Source: a virus. Taken from it: a stretch of 64,000 bases of DNA. The DNA lies in the IMG/VR virus record IMGVR_UViG_3300020731_000774, positions 13,734 through 77,733 of that record; one strand, written 5' to 3'. The translations under genes and the position numbers were made by a program. This document shows positions 5,770 through 60,760 of the stretch, in pieces. Numbering within the stretch: position 1 is the stretch's first letter; the number at the start of each line of letters is the position of its first letter. The notes under the pieces are model-generated. The model was not told where the DNA came from. It saw only the letters and a program-made list of their open reading frames with translations, and did no database searches.

Positions 5770-6728
5770 TAGTATTTTATTGTTTTTATTATAGAATCTA
5801 ATAAAATATAATTATTTTCATTTAAATGATTTATTGAAACTTTATTATCAGTGTCTCTATATTTTCTTATTAGATGAGTGCTGAATTTATATTTTTTAAC
5901 TATATCCTCCATATTTTCAAAAACTTCAACATCTCCGTTATTTTTTATTATTTCTATTTTTAATCCATTTCGCTTTTTGCGATTTTTCATTTTTTCTAAA
6001 TAATCAGGATCTTCCCATTTCTTCTTTATCTTAATACCGGCATCAATTCTTTTAGTTTCATCTTTGTTTATTTTATCCATTTTTTCTTTAAAGTTTAGTC
6101 GGTATTCTTCATTCATACTATCCCATCTATCTTGTGTTTCTTTTCTTTTCTTTTCAACATTTTCAAAATTAGAATAATATTCGCTCATTTGTTTAGATTT
6201 CTCTATTCGTTTATCTTCGGTCCAATAACTTTTCATTTTATTACAAAAATCTATATACTCATCATCTGATATATTATCCCAAAAAATATTAGCTCTCCTT
6301 GTTTGTTCTTCTTTAGATATATTTTTCATAAACTCAGATCTACTTTTTCTCCAATTATTATATTTCTCTGTATCATTTTTTAAGTTGATCCATCCTTTTT
6401 TAGCAGCATTTGATGTTTCATAACTATTTTTATAATAATTCATCATCCAGTTTAATGGTCTTTGATAAGTTCTTATATTTATCGCTTTAAATAACCAAAG
6501 ATGTACTAAACGATGACTATCATAGTCTAGTTCAATAATATTCCAATATTCGTTTTCAAACTCAGGAAAAGTAGATCTTGGTAATATGTGGTGTTTTTCA
6601 GAATATTCTACACTTTCTGATATTTTATAATTGATTAAAAAGTTAATATATTTATCTAAGTATTCTGAATTATCAACACTTTCATGTCTTTTTATTAAAG
6701 CATCTTTTAAAAAATTATAATCTCTCAT
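5769..6728 (-). mobile_element. Free-standing HNH homing endonuclease inserted in uvsW
   Basis: EKHHILPRS..NIIEL..SHRLVH HNH motif, Trp/Lys-rich repeats, lies between the two helicase halves, TAATATATA 4 nt upstream. Confidence 0.85.
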
Positions 6729-13372: not shown

Positions 13373-14563
13373 ATGGATAAGGAATATATAAAAGGTTTAA
13401 TACAAAAAATACTAAATAAAGAATTTTCATCTTCTACTAGAAGACGTATTAATGATTTTAATGATAGATTTAATTTTTGTGCACCTTGTTGTGGTGATTC
13501 TCACAAAAATGAACATAAAAAAAGGGGTAATCTATATCTTAATAAATTGAGATACATTTGTTTCAATTGTGGTGCATCTATGACACTTGATAAACTATGT
13601 AAAAAATTTAATGAACAAGTAGATCCTGATAAAAAATTAGAAATGATAGAACACTTAAATAGTGTTGTCACTTATTCAGATTATGAAAATGATATGTCCG
13701 ATGCTAAATTAGAAAATCTAATTGATTTATCAGAACTTGAAAGAGTTTTCTCTAATAATTTAACACCCATATCAGATTTTAAACCAATACAATTAAATGG
13801 TGGTGTATATAAATACTTATTAAATAGAGGTATTGGTCCAGAATTACATGAAAATATTTATCAAGGTAAATATTGGAAAAATGAAGATGAATCAGAATGG
13901 ATAATAATAATGTTAAATAGGAGAGATGATAAAGTATTAGGTATGCAAATTCGTAATCTTAAAGAAGGTAAACGAAGAATGTTCAAAATATATAATTATG
14001 AAAATTTACATGAATGGGTCAGTATTGGAAAAGATGAACCTGATATTGATATAAATGAATTAGTTCTTTATAATAAATTGTCATATTATTTTAACATACT
14101 TAATGTTAACTTAGGTGATGTTATTACAGTTTTTGAAGGATATATAGATTCTATGTTTTATCCCAATTCGATTGGTTTAGTTGGAGTTAATACTGATAAT
14201 ACATTACTTGAGAATAATGGTCTAGATATAAGATATTTTTATGATAATGATGATGCAGGTTTTAAAAAATCCGAGCAAAAAATAAAAGCTGGTTATCCTG
14301 TTTTTCTATGGAAAAAATTATTCCAAGATATAGTGGATAAAAAGAAAACAGATGATCCTGATCGTTTATTACATAGGATAAGTAAAGTCAAGGATATGAA
14401 CAAATTAGCACAACTAGTAGAAGATCCATATAATAAATTAGGACTAGATGATTTTTTCAGTAAAGATGAATATGATTTGAAATGGATACCAAAAGTTGTA
14501 AGAGTTAATAAAATACAAGAAGTTGACTATAATAAAAAATTTAAATTTTTTGATTCTTTCTAA
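13373..14563 (+). CDS. DNA primase, T4 gp61-like
   Basis: Zn ribbon CCGDS..KKRG..CFNCG, YLLNRGI, TOPRIM VFEGYIDS and YFYDNDDAG, KDMN. Confidence 0.85.
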   Translation: MDKEYIKGLIQKILNKEFSSSTRRRINDFNDRFNFCAPCCGDSHKNEHKKRGNLYLNKLRYICFNCGASMTLDKLCKKFNEQVDPDKKLEMIEHLNSVVTYSDYENDMSDAKLENLIDLSELERVFSNNLTPISDFKPIQLNGGVYKYLLNRGIGPELHENIYQGKYWKNEDESEWIIIMLNRRDDKVLGMQIRNLKEGKRRMFKIYNYENLHEWVSIGKDEPDIDINELVLYNKLSYYFNILNVNLGDVITVFEGYIDSMFYPNSIGLVGVNTDNTLLENNGLDIRYFYDNDDAGFKKSEQKIKAGYPVFLWKKLFQDIVDKKKTDDPDRLLHRISKVKDMNKLAQLVEDPYNKLGLDDFFSKDEYDLKWIPKVVRVNKIQEVDYNKKFKFFDSF

Positions 14564-16291: not shown

Positions 16292-16306
16292 AAAATAAAA
16301 TAAAAT

Positions 16307-16338
16307 AAAAATGATGTAGATTTTCTACATCATTTTTT
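16307..16338 (-). terminator. Intrinsic terminator after polB
   Basis: AAAAATGATGTAGA-TTT-TCTACATCATTTTT. Confidence 0.7.
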
Positions 16339-17805
16339 AGAAACCTTTCCAAATCCACCAAATATATCCTGTATAACTGATAATCTTTCTGTAATTTCTG
16401 GCATACCCAATGGTTCAATAATTGTATTGATTGGTGATAAAATAGATTTAGCAAATTGTATATCATAATCTATTTCAGGTGCTACCTCAATAGGTAATGA
16501 TCCCCTAATATAGGCAAATATATCACCATTTTTCTTATTCTTACAATAATAATACTTAATCTTTGTCCCAGACTTAATAAATTCATATCGTGTTTGTAAC
16601 TCCTTATTCTGTTTCAATAAATAATTATGATATGCACTTGCTTTAACTGCAAAGTGAGCACCATTAACAAACTTTAATGGCAATGAATTATCATCAATTA
16701 CCTTAGTATCATAATTAGAACAAGATGATTGCATTGAAATATCATCAATATCAGCTAACTCAAATTCCTTTCTAAGATTCTTAACCAATTTTAATAAGTC
16801 CTTTATGTTAAAGGTATCAGAATTCTCAAATAAATATTTAACAATTGTGATAATCTTTTCCCTTGCAAATAAAGGTGTGGAAGATCTTACCAATTCAACT
16901 CCCTTTGGAAATAAATATGTTAACCTATCGTAATTTATACCATCCTCAAATGAAACATGTTGAATATATTTCTTTTTTGCCAAACTGATAACCGATTCTG
17001 ATATACGTTCTAACTCAAAATCTTGTCTGTTCTCAACACCATATAAATCACCATAATCTACTAAACACTTTTTAAAATATCCACCATATCTGAAATGGTC
17101 TATACCTTGGATATAATCCAATTCTTTACACCAATTCCATTTAGGTTTAACCGTTAATGCACCATTATTTATTAAATCATTTAAACCATAATCCTTAACA
17201 AATACACCATCAATTAAAACCAAATCATATTCTAATGTTAATAACTTCTCAAATTCATCAACAGTTTTAGAAATACCTAAACAATTTGGATTATTAAAAC
17301 TTGGAAGTTCATTTGATAAAATGATAAATTTCTTACCAATGGAATTTAACATATTCGTGTTGAATATTAAATTCTTCCATTCTGAATGTCGAATTGCTGG
17401 TTCAAATGACACAAAAAGAGAATCTGTGTCCGCGTAAATACTTACATTTTCATCCTCATTAATTTTACTAACATTTTTTATACATAAATTCTTATGTAAT
17501 TCAACATCTAGATGCCATTGATTGTGCCAATAATCTTTATTAACCTTATCCATTGTTTGTGTAAGCTGCCTACCTTGTGCAGTTATACTTCCAGCAACCG
17601 CATTATTATATAATACGAAGTAGGAAGCTGCCATCGCTCCGTAAGAACCGTTCAATACTAATTTTAGTCTTTTACCCCCAATACATTGTATTGGGGGCTA
17701 CAAAAGAGCGAGCTGAAGGGCATTGTAATAGTCTGCCTCCTTCTTTAGCTCGCTCGCTTGTTTTTTTAAAGACTCGATCTTTAATTTTTTTTCTTCTCTA
17801 GTCAT
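16330..17805 (-). CDS. Family B DNA polymerase, C-terminal subunit of a split enzyme (gp43B-like), with a 39-nt stop-containing insert in motif B
   Basis: ATG 17805 reads MTREEKKLKIESLKKQASELKKEADYYNALQLAL[L*PPIQCIGGKRL]KLVLNGSYG; then ITAQGR, YADTDS, KKKY, KGVELVRSSTP; about 478 aa if the insert is skipped. Confidence 0.88.
17665..17755 (-). other. Candidate ribosomal bypass element: 5' stem-loop, UAG, 10-bp GC hairpin
   Basis: GAGCGAGCU/AGCUCGCUC stem (17706-17755), TAG at 17698-17700, CCCCCAAUAC-AAU-GUAUUGGGGG (17675-17697). Confidence 0.65.
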
Positions 17806-17810
17806 ATATA

Positions 17811-17837
17811 TTATATCAGAAATAATCAAATTAGTTT
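17811..17837 (-). promoter_or_regulatory. Putative middle promoter AAAC-N17-ATATAA (polB)
   Basis: Exact motif 5 nt upstream of ATG 17805, which supports that start. Confidence 0.55.
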
Positions 17838-17886
17838 TAAAGGGGGAGTATATTATTTTATATATAATTAAAATAGTATAAACGAT

Positions 17887-19005
17887 ATGATTAAAGAATA
17901 TAAGATTTTAATGAAGATAAATTATAGAAATGTATCACATTTTAGAAATTTAGGATATGAAATAGAAAATGGTGTTAAGGAAATGTATATTTCAGTTTGT
18001 GATTTGTTCCAGGGCTCAAATGTTAAGGTAACTGCGGTATGTGAAATATGTAGTTCTGAAAATATAATAAATTATAGTAAGTATTTAGTTAATTTTAATA
18101 GGAATGGTAAAAACTATTATTCTTGTTTTAAATGTAAAAATATTGAGAAAGAGAAAACATGTATGGAAAAATATGGTGTTAAATCATATTCAATGACAGA
18201 TGAATTTAGAGAAACAGAAAGTTTAAAATGGAAAGGCATTAAGAAAGGTGGTGATAAGGGTGAGAAAACTATGTTAGAGAGATATGGTGTAAGATCTTAT
18301 TTTGAAACGCAGGAAAGTAAGGACTATAATAGAAAGTGGATGTCATCTGATGAGTTTAGAAATAAAAGTAAGGATACATTGATAGAGAAATATGGAGTAG
18401 ATTCATATTCAAAAACTGATGAATTTAAAAATAGAATGGCCGAACAAAATGAAGTTTCAAAGGAAAAGTCAAAATCTACATTTTTGGAGAGATATGGTGT
18501 TGAGTGGTATACTCAATGTGAGGAATATAGGAATACTTGTATTGAAAAGAAAGATGAGACTATCTTAAAAAATAAGGAAACATGTATGGAAAGATATGGA
18601 GTTGATAATGTTAGTAAAGTTCCTGAAGTACAACAATCTATGAAAAATACTAAAATAGAAAGAGGATCTATACTACCTGATCATTTATTAAGTGAGTGGG
18701 AAATATATAAAAAGAATGTTAGACGAATAACTAATAAATTTGAAAAAGAATTATATGAAAACTGGGATGGAATTGATCATTATGATGGTGAGAATATAAA
18801 GGGATATTTTTCACATACTCATACACATCGTTTCTATCCGACAATAGATCATAAAAATTCAGTTTATTATGGATTTTTAAATAACATTGATCCAAGTGAA
18901 ATTGGTTCTATTGAAAATTTATGTATAACTAAAAGATATATAAATTCTACCAAATCCAGGATGATAGAGAAAGAATTCTTAGAAAAGTTAAAAAACCAAT
19001 CCTAA
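17887..19005 (+). mobile_element. Free-standing HNH endonuclease, divergent from polB
   Basis: CEIC/CFKC Zn motif, five (K/R)YGV repeats, C-terminal TIDHK..ENLCIT..INSTK HNH/HNN core. Confidence 0.75.
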
Positions 19006-19011
19006 TTCTGA

Positions 19012-19383
19012 TCATAAAACCACATTAGTATCACTATCCAACCCATTTTCATTGGTAAATTGGTTTTCATCCACATTTTCATTTATAATTAGTTTATCGT
19101 CTTTTATAATTTTACTAGGTCTTTTATAGTCTTTCATAACCTTAACTGGTTTTTCAATTATTATAATTTTTCTTCTATTTAATGAATTTATTATGGAATC
19201 TTTTTCTAGTATTTCGTATTGTAGTATTTCGTTATCTGTGATTAGTTCGTTATTGTCTTTATTCATATTATTCATAACATATAATAGTGATATTATCACT
19301 AGAATAAGCACATATGGAAATCTTGAATTTCTCACATTATTTCTATAATATGTTCGTCTATTATTCATATTCACTTTCATCAA
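19012..19383 (-). CDS. Hypothetical membrane-anchored protein
   Basis: One hydrophobic segment (YVLILVIISLLYVM) then coiled coil; start may be 19368. Confidence 0.5.
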   Translation of the reverse strand: MMKVNMNNRRTYYRNNVRNSRFPYVLILVIISLLYVMNNMNKDNNELITDNEILQYEILEKDSIINSLNRRKIIIIEKPVKVMKDYKRPSKIIKDDKLIINENVDENQFTNENGLDSDTNVVL

Positions 19384-42657: not shown

Positions 42658-42689
42658 AAAAACCCCTTAGAAAATTCTAAGGGGTTTTT
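42658..42689. terminator. Bidirectional intrinsic terminator
   Basis: AAAAACCCCTTAGAA-AA-TTCTAAGGGGTTTTT. Confidence 0.85.
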
Positions 42690-56890: not shown

Positions 56891-59800
56891 TTATAAGAAA
56901 CCTCCTGCTGCAATAGCACCTGTTCTAAGTATAGTTACGTTATTAACTATTATTCCCATACCCTTAACTGGTTCAACATATGTGTCTAATACTCCTATCT
57001 GATTATCTATTATATCAGAAGTGTTATTTTCTTCATCCATTTTATTAAAATAGTTATAAAGACCACCTTTATTTACATATGTTTCACAGATAACATCTGC
57101 TCTCATTTTAATTTCAGCTCTTGTATCTGATGTATTGAATTTCCATTGGAAGTCTAATAACATATCGGATAATTCTCTTTCTAATTCAATTAAAACTTCT
57201 CTTACGTGGATATAAGAAAGTGCAGATTTGTATAGAGTTTGAGCTGTGTTTTCGGTTTCAATAACATTTCCTCTGTTTCTTTTGAAAACAATTGGGTTCA
57301 TTTGAGCACCATTAAGGAAATCAATATCATCTGGTGTGAAATCCATCTCTAATCCAGAAATATTAGTAATTCTACCATTGGTAACACCTGCTGCAATAGT
57401 CCAAGGAGTTATTCCACCAACATTTGAATTTTGTTTTTTCATATATGTTGTTGCAACGTGTGATGCTGGTGGCATATTAAGAGGTCTACCATTATCATCT
57501 ACTGTTAAGTAAGGTAAGAAATAACCAACTGCTGTTGTACCAGGACCATCACCAAATGAGTATAAGAATGCTGGGCTACTTTGTGGGTCAGCACCATTTG
57601 CGATATATTCTGCTTGTAATACTCCATCAGAATCAACGAATGATGGTGAAGTAGAGTTTTTGAAGTCTTTCATAGATGGCATGTTTATAAAACCAAATGC
57701 ATCTAATCTATCACCACAAATATCAACTAATTGTTGTTTAGATCTTTCAATTAGACCATTACCGAAAGCATCTACTAAATATCTGAAATCAAAAGATTCT
57801 TTATTTGTTATTGCTTTGAATAAAGGAGTTCCTTTTGCAATTAGGTTTAATATTTCGCTTTGTTTAGTTTCTGTTCCATCTGGTAGAGAAGCTTGTCTAA
57901 CTCTGAAACCTGTCATAGTAACACCTTTATAAGTGTTTGCATAGTTTTCAACTTTTTGGTATCTAGTTACTTGGTAAGAAGAACCTGAAAAAGATTTTTT
58001 AATAGATGAATCACAAGTAATTTCAATTAATGATGAATCACCACTATATTGTTTTTTTGATAGAATTCTTGTTAATTTTCTAGCAACTTCACCAATTTCT
58101 AATATTGTGCTATCATATTCAGCATCTAGGAAGTCTCCAACAACAACTTCTGTATATCTCGAACCATTAACAAGTATTTTGTTAGGAACTTCAACATAAT
58201 TAGCAGGAACAACAATATCCAATGTTTGTTTATAGTTAGAATCCGCTGATTGTACATAGAAAGTGTTGATATTATTAGTTATTGTAAATGGATTGTTGGA
58301 TTGTAATAAGCTATCCATGAAATTAACTGTCATAATACCTGTTGTATCATCGTATATTTTCAAATAACGTTTTGTAGCATCTAGTGTATTATTTACTTGT
58401 GTAATATTATTAGCAACTTCATAAGAAGTATTCTCGTTTACTTGGTAATAATAAGTATTAGATGATGTGTCACCAAATAGTGATTTAGAAACTTCACTTA
58501 ATATAGTGAACGTACCTGTATTTGAAATAGCACCTCTTATTTGTATTTGGTCACCTGTAATTAACATAGGATCTACTGAACCTTCAAATGATATATAGTC
58601 ATTTCCTGCAATTAATGAGTAAGTAACACCTGTTGCTAAGCCAGAAACATAAGATGGTGTTTCACCTGGTAAGAAAGTTATAGTATATCCACCATTTGCA
58701 ATTACTGTATTAGGAACTTTATTTTCATAGATGAAATCACCTGTGTTGATATAACCATCATAGAATTTAGTATAAAGATCAGAATATTGTGCTACAACAC
58801 CACTTGCAGTTGCTGAATTGCTAGTATCAGCTACAGTGTTTTTTGTTATTAATCCAGCTGAACCTAAGATAAGCTCGTTGTCCACTGTATAGAATGCTAA
58901 TAAACCGTTTAATACATCTGTTAATTGAGAATTATCTAAACCTGTGTTAAAATCAAATGCTTTATTTTGTGTTGTAGATGTTATTATGTTTGATATGGTC
59001 ATTCCACTTAATGAAACTTTATCCATATTAATATTTAATAACATTGTCATTTTATCTTTGTTAGGTCCATCTAATAAATCTACCAATCTATTAAAGATTT
59101 TAAATCTTCTATATTGTGCATAGTTTGATGTCACAGCTGTGTTATTAGTGTTTAAGAAAGTAACTGTGATTGATCCATTTGATCCTGATGTAATTGTATA
59201 ATCTGTACCAAAAACAAGATTTTTATAACCAGAATTATCAACATATACACTGTTAATTGTAGGTGTTGCTCCTACAAAATTTTGTTTATAAACATTTGCT
59301 GTTGCATATCCTAAAACAATATCAGTTGGTGCAACTGATGGTGGTGTTGAACTTACTAAACTATTAACAACTTTGATTGTACCTGTTGTATCAAGAACAA
59401 ATGTTGATATAAATGATTGTGTAGCTGAGCTAGAAGCATATATATTAGAGTTTACTGATACATTGAATGTAGAACCAGTTGCAATTTGTATATAATTATC
59501 ACCAACAACTGAATAAGCTATATTAGCATCAGTTGTGAATGTGAAAGACATAGTTGATGATGTATATGTGCTAGCAGATGTTGCTACTGTAACACCATTT
59601 ACTATATCCTCTGCAAAGTATGTAGTTCTATTACCATTTTCAACAACACCTGTTTGTGTAGGTGTTCCAAATGCGTGATCATTAGATGTGAAATTTGAAT
59701 ATGTTCCAATTAAAGCAGTTACGTTTCCAGGTAAGTCTAATGGTTTATTAGTGAAAGAAACTTCTTCTATGATAGTTTCGTTATAAGATAGGAAATTGAT

Positions 59801-60760
59801 ATTAGAAACATTTTCACCAGCAATTGTATTACCTATAAGGTCAATTTTACCATTGTAGAAATCAGCTTCAACTATATCATTATTAAAAGCACAGAAAATA
59901 CCTGTTTTATCAGTATCTCTATTGATAGTTGTTTCAATAAAAATGTTAGTTCCGTTAGCATCTCTAAAATAAGGGATTAAAGAAAGCCCCTCATAATAAG
60001 CTAATGTTGTTACATTTCTATCATTTGCAAAATTTCTAATTTGTTCTTTTCTAAGTCCTGTTGTGTTAAAATATGCACCCCATCTTGGGTCAATTGAAAG
60101 TTTTTGGTAATCAGACCAATCACCTGAAACAATAACAACGTCAACCATATAATCAGATGCCCAATCATTTGTGCTAACGTATGGTGGTACTTTTTCAGCA
60201 GCTCCATACCATTCTATAAGAGTTCTATCAAACCCTGAAACTTGTGTGTGGAATACAAAAACAGTAGCATATCTATCAGAAAGATTTGTTAAATTAAATG
60301 CTCTATCAGCATAACCTGTATTAGATTTAGTTAAATTGATAAAAGATTCAGTGTCTCTTTTCCAGAAACCTGTTGTATCATGAAATCTTCTATACGGACC
60401 AACTCTTTCTATGTCATTAGAAACATTAGCCGATGATGATAATGATTTATATTCTATTGTGTCTAAGGTGTCATCTGTTAACAATAAGTTTATTGCATAA
60501 ACAGGAGAGCTTTCTAACATCTTAGAAATAGTTCTGTGGAAGAAAGAACCTTTTCTTTCTAATCCTCTATCCAATTGACCGAAGATGCTTTCCAAATCGT
60601 TGGTATTAGTTAATCTAATTGGTGTATTAACTGGTCCCTTTTTAGAGACACCAATTACCAAGTTAGTTATACCATCAACTATTGGAGCAGATATAACAGA
60701 GTTATCATATTCCTCTAAAAATATCCCAGGTCTTTTGTATTTTCCTATTTGAATTCCCAT
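56891..60760 (-). CDS. Tail sheath protein, gp18-like (1289 aa)
   Basis: YKRPGIFLEEYD..KGP.NTP..FG N-terminus; PPA, AG..NG, SALS.IHVRE, MDEENNT..ID..VEPVK C-terminus. Confidence 0.9.
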   Translation of the reverse strand: MGIQIGKYKRPGIFLEEYDNSVISAPIVDGITNLVIGVSKKGPVNTPIRLTNTNDLESIFGQLDRGLERKGSFFHRTISKMLESSPVYAINLLLTDDTLDTIEYKSLSSSANVSNDIERVGPYRRFHDTTGFWKRDTESFINLTKSNTGYADRAFNLTNLSDRYATVFVFHTQVSGFDRTLIEWYGAAEKVPPYVSTNDWASDYMVDVVIVSGDWSDYQKLSIDPRWGAYFNTTGLRKEQIRNFANDRNVTTLAYYEGLSLIPYFRDANGTNIFIETTINRDTDKTGIFCAFNNDIVEADFYNGKIDLIGNTIAGENVSNINFLSYNETIIEEVSFTNKPLDLPGNVTALIGTYSNFTSNDHAFGTPTQTGVVENGNRTTYFAEDIVNGVTVATSASTYTSSTMSFTFTTDANIAYSVVGDNYIQIATGSTFNVSVNSNIYASSSATQSFISTFVLDTTGTIKVVNSLVSSTPPSVAPTDIVLGYATANVYKQNFVGATPTINSVYVDNSGYKNLVFGTDYTITSGSNGSITVTFLNTNNTAVTSNYAQYRRFKIFNRLVDLLDGPNKDKMTMLLNINMDKVSLSGMTISNIITSTTQNKAFDFNTGLDNSQLTDVLNGLLAFYTVDNELILGSAGLITKNTVADTSNSATASGVVAQYSDLYTKFYDGYINTGDFIYENKVPNTVIANGGYTITFLPGETPSYVSGLATGVTYSLIAGNDYISFEGSVDPMLITGDQIQIRGAISNTGTFTILSEVSKSLFGDTSSNTYYYQVNENTSYEVANNITQVNNTLDATKRYLKIYDDTTGIMTVNFMDSLLQSNNPFTITNNINTFYVQSADSNYKQTLDIVVPANYVEVPNKILVNGSRYTEVVVGDFLDAEYDSTILEIGEVARKLTRILSKKQYSGDSSLIEITCDSSIKKSFSGSSYQVTRYQKVENYANTYKGVTMTGFRVRQASLPDGTETKQSEILNLIAKGTPLFKAITNKESFDFRYLVDAFGNGLIERSKQQLVDICGDRLDAFGFINMPSMKDFKNSTSPSFVDSDGVLQAEYIANGADPQSSPAFLYSFGDGPGTTAVGYFLPYLTVDDNGRPLNMPPASHVATTYMKKQNSNVGGITPWTIAAGVTNGRITNISGLEMDFTPDDIDFLNGAQMNPIVFKRNRGNVIETENTAQTLYKSALSYIHVREVLIELERELSDMLLDFQWKFNTSDTRAEIKMRADVICETYVNKGGLYNYFNKMDEENNTSDIIDNQIGVLDTYVEPVKGMGIIVNNVTILRTGAIAAGGFL

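Follow-up and report, generated by a model that had tools for sequence, protein, structure and literature searches.

In the gene polB-C of a very large phage, 39 nucleotides (nt) that interrupt DNA polymerase motif B probably constitute a coding gap, which the ribosome would skip by programmed translational bypass, and together with the gene of an HNH-like endonuclease and the first ~100 nt of polB-C they appear to form a single mobile cassette. The gene lies on the minus strand of a 64,000-nt stretch of DNA (the window), which is part of the 77.7-kb IMG/VR record IMGVR_UViG_3300020731_000774 (positions 13,734 to 77,733). As CheckV rates the record 12% complete, what the window covers is a fragment from a very large phage; the content of guanine plus cytosine in the window is 27%. 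A bypass had been proposed from the letters of the window in an initial annotation, and the comparison with related phages supports it. Gaps that shift the reading frame, a stop codon specific to the upstream frame, a covarying 5' stem-loop and a linked endonuclease all point in this direction, and a bypass from CUU to CUA accounts for the comparative evidence more readily than any of the rival explanations.

The interrupted gene consists of the following elements, given in window coordinates and, apart from the stem-loop, in the order in which a ribosome would meet them.

17704..17805, minus strand: first coding segment of polB-C, 34 codons, from M to ...YYNALQLAL, with the ATG at 17805-17803; homologous to the start of the uninterrupted homologues
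17706..17755, minus strand: 50-nt 5' stem-loop that uses rare synonymous codons and whose 3' arm ends at the first base of CUU
17706-17704, minus strand: CUU, candidate take-off codon and last codon of the first segment
17665..17703, minus strand: putative coding gap of 39 nt, made up of UUG, UAG, a hairpin, the spacer UAAAAGA and CUA
17703-17701, minus strand: UUG, the first gap codon
17698..17700, minus strand: in-frame UAG stop, the second codon after take-off
17675..17697, minus strand: C5...G5 core of the gap hairpin, with 10 Watson-Crick pairs and a closing G-U pair (17674/17698), beginning 5-6 nt past the take-off codon
17667-17665, minus strand: CUA, candidate landing codon, followed by AAA at 17664-17662
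16330..17664, minus strand: second coding segment of polB-C, with KLVLNGSYG (motif B), YADTDS (motif C), the thumb and the stop

All the parts of the insert described initially (UUG, UAG, the 10-bp hairpin and CUA) are thus present on the minus strand, and the upstream stem-loop folds in the way that had been proposed. The gap alone folds at -18.4 kcal/mol and the 5' stem-loop at -24 kcal/mol, and a 171-nt region has a folding z of -6.8 relative to dinucleotide shuffles. The codons of the stem-loop arms had been called rare for this genome, and in the window they are: GCG and GCC account for 2% and 4% of the Ala codons, AGC for 4% of the Ser codons and CTC for 1% of the Leu codons.

The long frame matches the Pfam family DNA_pol_B (PF00136) and the PHROG DNA polymerase family phrog_262, and the match to the phrog_262 profile crosses the UAG without a break. 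Motif B (K-x3-N-S/G-x-Y-G) and motif C (Y-x-DTDS) of the C-terminal half of family B polymerases are both present. The window gene represents this half only; the N-terminal, exonuclease-containing half was not found on the 77.7-kb record. In four near-complete relatives of 465-597 kb (G001-G004; L075-L078, L080-L083) the two halves are separate single-copy genes that lie roughly 100-210 kb apart. A polymerase split of this kind is known from T4-related phages, in which an N-terminal exonuclease gene and a C-terminal gene for the fingers, palm and thumb (gp43A and gp43B of Aeh1) together specify the enzyme. The present genes have the same N-terminal and C-terminal division and differ from the Aeh1 type by the large distance between the halves and by the coding gap in the C-terminal one.

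The relatives were collected by a scan of viral contigs, which gave 71 loci from huge phages, with polB-C 57-75% identical, falling into 46 clusters at 95% nucleotide identity. The GenBank records nearest to polB-C are uninterrupted and belong to uncultured phages of 634 and 642 kb. The nearest cultured relatives, judged by polB-C, are phages of Chryseobacterium, Flavobacterium and Prevotella, and the host is probably a member of the Bacteroidota. In 16 lineages motif B is uninterrupted and reads ...YYNALQLALKLVLNGSYGAF, without a gap, which is the motif predicted by skipping the 39 nt. A profile of these uninterrupted proteins aligns with motifs B and C of the solved herpesvirus, archaeal, RB69-type and Pol alpha polymerases. 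The initial claim that removal of the 39 nt would restore a family B motif has thus been confirmed.

The insert occurs in independent contigs and is therefore real DNA. A contig from another sample is identical over the stretch, insert included, and a contig of a 2012 run aligns to it without gaps at 95% identity; within the insert the changes are confined to the loop and to one spacer base, the one that follows the G-run. These contigs speak against the assembly artefact that the initial annotation had considered. The nearest protein in the database, with 93% identity, shows the same truncation, and no near-identical form of 474 residues was found there. The lengths of the related proteins are bimodal, 440-450 versus 475 residues, which shows that gene callers truncate these polymerase genes.

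Downstream of the gap, the frame is intact for 353-458 codons in 24 interrupted lineages, in which the median ratio of nonsynonymous to synonymous substitution rates (dN/dS) is 0.13, with synonymous sites near saturation. The downstream frame is under purifying selection. Its integrity and conservation suggest that a downstream product is made; the lack of one had been named at the outset as a ground for giving up the bypass. A search for an intact second copy was directed at near-complete relatives, since the record of the window is so incomplete. The near-complete interrupted relatives of 483 and 465 kb each carry one N-terminal and one C-terminal polB piece, so that the initially considered pseudogene with an intact copy elsewhere is not what these genomes contain. 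Neither a family A nor a family C polymerase was found in five near-complete relatives.

Altogether 31 lineages are interrupted by hairpin gaps of 36-48 nt. The gaps are situated at motif codons 8 (Ala), 9 (Leu, the site used in the window), 12 (Val), 15 (Gly), 16 (Ser) and 17 (Tyr), all of them within 27 nt. Among 32 distinct inserts the length modulo 3 is 0 in 10, 1 in 14 and 2 in 8. One lineage is polymorphic: its near-identical members L053, L054 and L055 have gaps of 41 and 42 nt (at ~5990-6035), one G apart in the G-run of the hairpin, and can be regarded as a natural test in which the length of the gap modulo 3 proves immaterial. The lengths that are not multiples of three and this polymorphism together imply that the gaps cannot be translated and that readthrough is no general explanation for them.

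Most of the gaps are flanked by matched codons. In 22 lineages the codon preceding the gap is repeated synonymously at the gap end, and this holds for five amino acids (Leu, Ala, Val, Gly and Ser). The pairs are CUU, CUG or CUC with CUA, GCU with GCA or GCU, GUU with GUA or GUU, GGU with GGU, and UCU with UCA; each pair stays within one four-codon box, and both of its codons could be read by a single tRNA. The codon after CUU varies among the relatives (UUG, GUU, UUU, UAA, UGU and CCG), with CUU and CUA kept. CUU is therefore the consistent candidate for take-off, and not UUG, which agrees with the choice made in the initial annotation.

A stop codon is found no more than two codons from take-off in the upstream frame of 25 of the 31 lineages, as compared with 0/31 and 1/31 in the other two frames (Fisher 6e-16). 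The gap hairpins of the relatives have 9-16 bp and energies of -17 to -31 kcal/mol; their stem sequences differ and the pairing is kept. In most lineages the core of the hairpin begins 5-6 nt past the take-off codon. The 66 nt that end at take-off fold at a mean of -21 to -24 kcal/mol when the gap is at site 8, 9 or 12, whereas the uninterrupted homologues, which encode the same peptide, give about -7 kcal/mol. Covariation across homologues, which the initial annotation had put forward as a check, is indeed observed: 6 of the 13 stem pairs of the 5' stem-loop show compensatory double changes in the 13 site-9 lineages, and 0 of 500 shuffles reach the observed values. The same pairs are only 42% paired in the uninterrupted genes. 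Past the landing site, the lineages share no conserved in-frame start codon.

Directly upstream of polB-C, beyond a short intergenic region, lies the second component of the proposed cassette, the endonuclease gene; the two features have the following coordinates.

17806..17886, no strand assigned: intergenic region of 81 nt between the divergent endonuclease gene and polB-C
17887..19005, plus strand: gene of a predicted free-standing homing endonuclease of 372 amino acids, divergent from polB-C, with a CxxC..CxxC N-terminal part, DUF7487 repeats and a C-terminal HNH-like domain

Neither this gene nor the split of polB was mentioned in the initial annotation. The protein matches DUF7487 and PHROG families named homing endonuclease, and its residues D321, H322, N344 and N353 (a D-H...N...N motif) are invariant. 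A structure model was obtained with a predicted local distance difference test score (pLDDT) of 86. The top fold matches of this model are all HNH domains (Cas9 HNH, the Gme HNH nickase and PacI), but their E-values of 0.07-0.3 are weak. With a modelled beta-beta-alpha-metal fold and catalytic His and Asn residues, the protein can be described as an HNH-like homing endonuclease, which is predicted to cleave DNA. Single-sequence searches of the PDB with the endonuclease and with uninterrupted polB-C gave nothing useful; the profile search for polB-C and the fold search for the endonuclease were the informative ones.

Of the 31 interrupted lineages, 20 have a homologue of the endonuclease, in one case reduced to a remnant, in the same divergent position; of the 16 uninterrupted ones, 0 have it (Fisher 9e-6). 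Closely related pairs of loci show the cassette in motion. L017 and L021 are syntenic and 91-95% identical, and the difference between them consists of an 860-bp endonuclease gene and a 39-nt gap. Downstream of motif B, L015 and L018 share 95-98% identity, but their gaps interrupt different codons. When such close pairs are compared, identity amounts to 71-84% over the 96 nt that precede motif B and to 92-98% directly behind it. This drop of identity implies that the unit that moves contains the gene of the endonuclease together with the gap and with the 5' end of polB-C, where the stem-loop codons are. The insert state is scattered over a quick maximum-likelihood tree of polB-C, with no more clustering than that of shuffled labels, which indicates frequent gain, loss or exchange of the insert. 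The endonuclease did not create the gene split, as more than 100 kb separate the halves of polB.

The region around polB-C varies among the relatives in other respects. An endonuclease of a different type (GIY-YIG with NUMOD3) is found at the same upstream position in two lineages (L058:5008-5772 and L045:5049-5810), one carrier being interrupted and the other uninterrupted. In one subclade the gene immediately upstream of polB-C encodes a homologue of translation initiation factor IF3 with the domains IF3_N and IF3_C (L017:5305-5838, and likewise in L012, L018, L019, L021, L022, L023, L029 and L056), and in three lineages an adenylosuccinate lyase gene adjoins polB-C (L067:4453-5823). In five lineages polB-C is split again after approximately residues 43-159 (L043:4761-5873, L048:4824-5921, L057:4749-5858, L062:4468-5580 and L070:4785-5885). 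The open reading frame (ORF) inside this second split has ~370 residues and no clear Pfam family, and may be another mobile element. Finally, polB-C of L053 (6001-7835, two ORFs) and of L063 (5890-7815, one 641-residue ORF) is ~520 nt longer than that of the window, which may be due to a further insertion or to an intein-like or extra domain.

The anatomy of the cassette, its conservation and mobility, the linkage of the gap to the endonuclease, and the selection acting downstream of the gap are shown by these data. By combining them, it is possible to suggest how the cassette might work, although the bypass, each of its steps and the target of the endonuclease are what we infer from comparison. 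The ribosome would read the 34 codons of the first segment until CUU arrives in its P site. The very stable hairpin, 5-6 nt downstream and at the mRNA entry, would then stop its progress, and the UAG one codon ahead would leave it no productive way forward. The peptidyl-tRNA(Leu) would let go of CUU. Once the take-off region exits from the ribosome, the 5' stem-loop would close behind it and draw the mRNA forward; it can close only at this point, because its 3' arm consists of the 13 nt that end in the take-off codon. The same tRNA would re-pair at CUA, the first cognate codon past the hairpin, and translation would restart at AAA, restoring QLAL-KLVLNGSYG.

At the level of DNA, the insert would divide the presumed target of the endonuclease. 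The endonuclease may thus cut the uninterrupted polB of co-infecting phages, the cassette shielding its own carrier. Such protection would be expected, since the insert splits the presumed target and all the insertion sites lie within 27 nt of one another in motif B.

Several observations weigh against this interpretation. Because related cassettes have a common ancestry, the lineage counts given above are independent only in part. In T4 the stop is the first codon after take-off; here it is the second, and the hairpin starts 5-6 nt downstream of take-off and not at the A-site codon. The G-run located 5-9 nt ahead of the landing codon is the 3' arm of the hairpin. Its role as a Shine-Dalgarno sequence is doubtful, since a motif of this type precedes only 4 of 60 window genes, which is the background level. 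The leaders are A/T-rich, with no Shine-Dalgarno motif ahead of either polB-C or the divergent endonuclease gene, and the hosts probably do without Shine-Dalgarno pairing. As the phage genes do not use such sites, the G-run is treated here as a hairpin arm and not as a proven landing signal. The nine lineages of the Tyr class (site 17) have neither a matched landing codon nor a strong 5' stem-loop: the triplet before GGA is AAC, GAC, UAA, AGC or CAA, and the stems often begin at the first gap base. This class either follows different rules or shows that the model lacks something. Between hairpin and landing site, the spacers contain 0 cognate triplets, with 2.2 expected, a difference that is not significant (P = 0.11). 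Lastly, with the window genome 12% complete, a second copy of polB-C could lie outside the record.

The main rival to bypass is that host or phage enzymes remove the hairpin from the mRNA and seal the cut ends, as in IRE1/RtcB or tRNA-type splicing, which would make the insert an unconventional mini-intron. A hairpin that joins both junctions would suit processing by an endonuclease and a ligase, the Tyr class with its stems from the first gap base and its lack of a matching landing codon would cause no difficulty, gaps off multiples of three would be explained equally well, and some relatives encode RNA ligases. However, three features would not be expected from this explanation: immediately behind the junction, a stop that is specific to the upstream frame; a synonymous codon duplicated at the gap ends; and a 5' stem-loop that ends at the junction codon. 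The relatives have no conserved splice-site sequence, and positions 16300-19100 have no match in Rfam at E <= 1. A phage RtcB or RNA ligase was rejected as the splicing enzyme, as its presence does not correlate with the insert: RtcB and Rnl-type ligases are both missing from the interrupted relative of 483 kb, and two uninterrupted relatives have ligases. Splicing of this kind thus seems improbable, while deserving more attention than the other alternatives. One of these would have translation terminate at UAG and a separate C-terminal polypeptide start past the hairpin, giving a polymerase of three pieces. The enzyme is already encoded by two genes in this clade, and the G-run looks like a ribosome-binding site with suitable spacing. 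The codons at which reading resumes (CUA, GCU, GUU, GGU and UCA) are nevertheless not start codons, and the first in-frame ATG, GTG or TTG is 1-39 codons downstream, beyond motif B in half of the lineages; the genes do not use Shine-Dalgarno sites, and the matched codons would be left unexplained. A three-piece polymerase is therefore very unlikely.

Slightly less credible still is readthrough of the UAG in this phage only, by which the 39 nt would add 13 residues to motif B. The gap of the window is a multiple of three with a single stop and a stable hairpin directly after it, which speaks for readthrough, but 22 of the 32 related inserts shift the frame and could not be expressed in this way, and the additional residues would break the Q-x3-K spacing of the catalytic helix. 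Furthermore, TAG is an ordinary stop in the window (TAA 31, TAG 3, TGA 3). The window has no tRNA genes, and the near-complete interrupted relative of 483 kb has three (Cys, Met and Gln), none of them a suppressor. Phage-encoded tRNAs for the take-off codons, or suppressor tRNAs, were rejected as candidates on these grounds, and so was an alternative genetic code, as the long frames are intact under table 11 with TAG among the ordinary stops. The notion of a decaying pseudogene or an assembly error is largely refuted and has hardly any probability left. It could appeal to the incompleteness of the window record, which leaves room for another copy in that genome, but the insert is contained in independent contigs, the downstream frames of the interrupted lineages are long, intact and selected (dN/dS 0.13), and the gene is single-copy in the near-complete interrupted relatives.

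Two further identities of the hairpin were considered and rejected. It is not a dispersed repeat or a miniature inverted-repeat transposable element (MITE), since the C5/G5 hairpin occurs once in the window and is not repeated elsewhere there; in the 483-kb relative the insert is also single-copy, the sole other comparable hairpin being a terminator. Nor is it a transcription terminator, as it is not followed by a T-run and a terminator scan gave no call. The only other C4...G4 hairpin of the window (42663-42684) is flanked by convergent ORFs and probably represents a terminator. Outside the polymerase region, the window encodes a tail sheath homologue (56891-60760) that is unusually long, with 1289 residues; the best-scoring sheath family matches only its C-terminal ~380 residues, and a weaker family extends back to residue 760.

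The proposed bypass in polB-C can be compared with the one in T4 gene 60. Dozens of gene 60 cassettes have been described, all in a topoisomerase gene (Topo2L) and all part of the MobA element; in these, the codons are matched, take-off is followed by a stop or hungry codon, there are take-off and 5' stem-loops and a mini-Shine-Dalgarno sequence, and the gap may be kept after loss of the endonuclease (Manning and Atkins, bioRxiv 10.1101/2022.08.31.505936). The polB-C cassette resembles them in many respects: 1) in the second half of a split gene for an essential enzyme, ~35-45 codons from its start, there is a short untranslatable gap; 2) the codons for take-off and landing match and a stop follows soon after take-off; 3) a stable stem-loop stands at the start of the gap and another one 5' of it; 4) the gap is linked to a free-standing HNH-type endonuclease, which some lineages have lost while keeping the gap; 5) the 5' end of the gene is co-converted with the cassette. 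The G-run, 5-9 nt before the landing codon, is placed like the mini-Shine-Dalgarno sequence of gene 60, but a corresponding role is doubtful, as noted above.

The differences are also considerable. The host gene of the T4 system encodes a topoisomerase, whereas here motif B of polB is interrupted, by gaps of 36-48 nt. The hairpin of gene 60 is at the A-site codon and its stop is directly adjacent to the take-off codon; here a long C5/G5 stem begins 5-6 nt after take-off and the stop is usually the second codon. The T4 relatives use two take-off codons, and the present lineages at least six. The endonuclease gene is here divergent and intergenic, and is not the origin of the gene split. Finally, the hosts are in this case probably without Shine-Dalgarno pairing. 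The polB element is thus like gene 60 in its apparent mode of action and is not a member of the MobA/gene 60 family, as its host gene is not Topo2L.

The other system for comparison is found in the mitochondria of the yeast Magnusiomyces capitatus, where, according to Lang et al. (2014) as cited by Manning and Atkins, 81 byps of 27-55 nt are distributed over 12 genes. Byps are like the polB-C gaps in being GC-rich hairpin inserts in AT-rich coding sequence, in having matched take-off and landing codons with deviations tolerated, and in having lengths free of any frame constraint. They differ in that byps are dispersed, whereas here one site-specific element is present per genome and is tied to a homing endonuclease, and in that their translation system is mitochondrial and the present one bacterial.

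Group I introns and inteins with homing endonucleases occur in phage polymerase genes (e.g. I-PfoP3I). As is presumed for the polB-C cassette, their insertion in a conserved polymerase motif removes the endonuclease's own target and spares the protein, which is why the selfish endonuclease persists. However, the insert is here 39 nt long, with no ribozyme or intein and no Rfam match, and it would be removed during translation and not by RNA or protein splicing.

A bypass in a polymerase gene was not described in any publication found by full-text searches, the coverage of which does not extend to subscription journals. A broader reading of the data, which is offered tentatively and is less likely to be right than wrong, is that a large and actively mobile family of endonuclease-linked bypass cassettes targets motif B of polB in huge freshwater phages, the hosts of which are probably Bacteroidota, with at least six take-off codons. 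The Tyr class, having neither a matched landing codon nor a 5' stem-loop, might then imply that landing can be guided by the hairpin, with neither anticodon re-pairing nor Shine-Dalgarno pairing, in a mode of bypass that has not yet been described.

Two natural cases of programmed translational bypass are established, one being the T4 gene 60 family, which is confined to topoisomerase genes, and the other the byps of yeast mitochondria. If the polB-C cassettes are indeed bypassed, they represent a second, non-homologous phage system, and the association of a homing endonuclease with a coding gap would be a recurrent evolutionary solution. The more than 30 natural variants, which comprise six take-off codons, various gap lengths, the presence or absence of the 5' stem-loop and that of a matched landing codon, form a ready mutational series for take-off, sliding and landing. 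The study of bypass would also be extended to ribosomes that probably do not use Shine-Dalgarno pairing.

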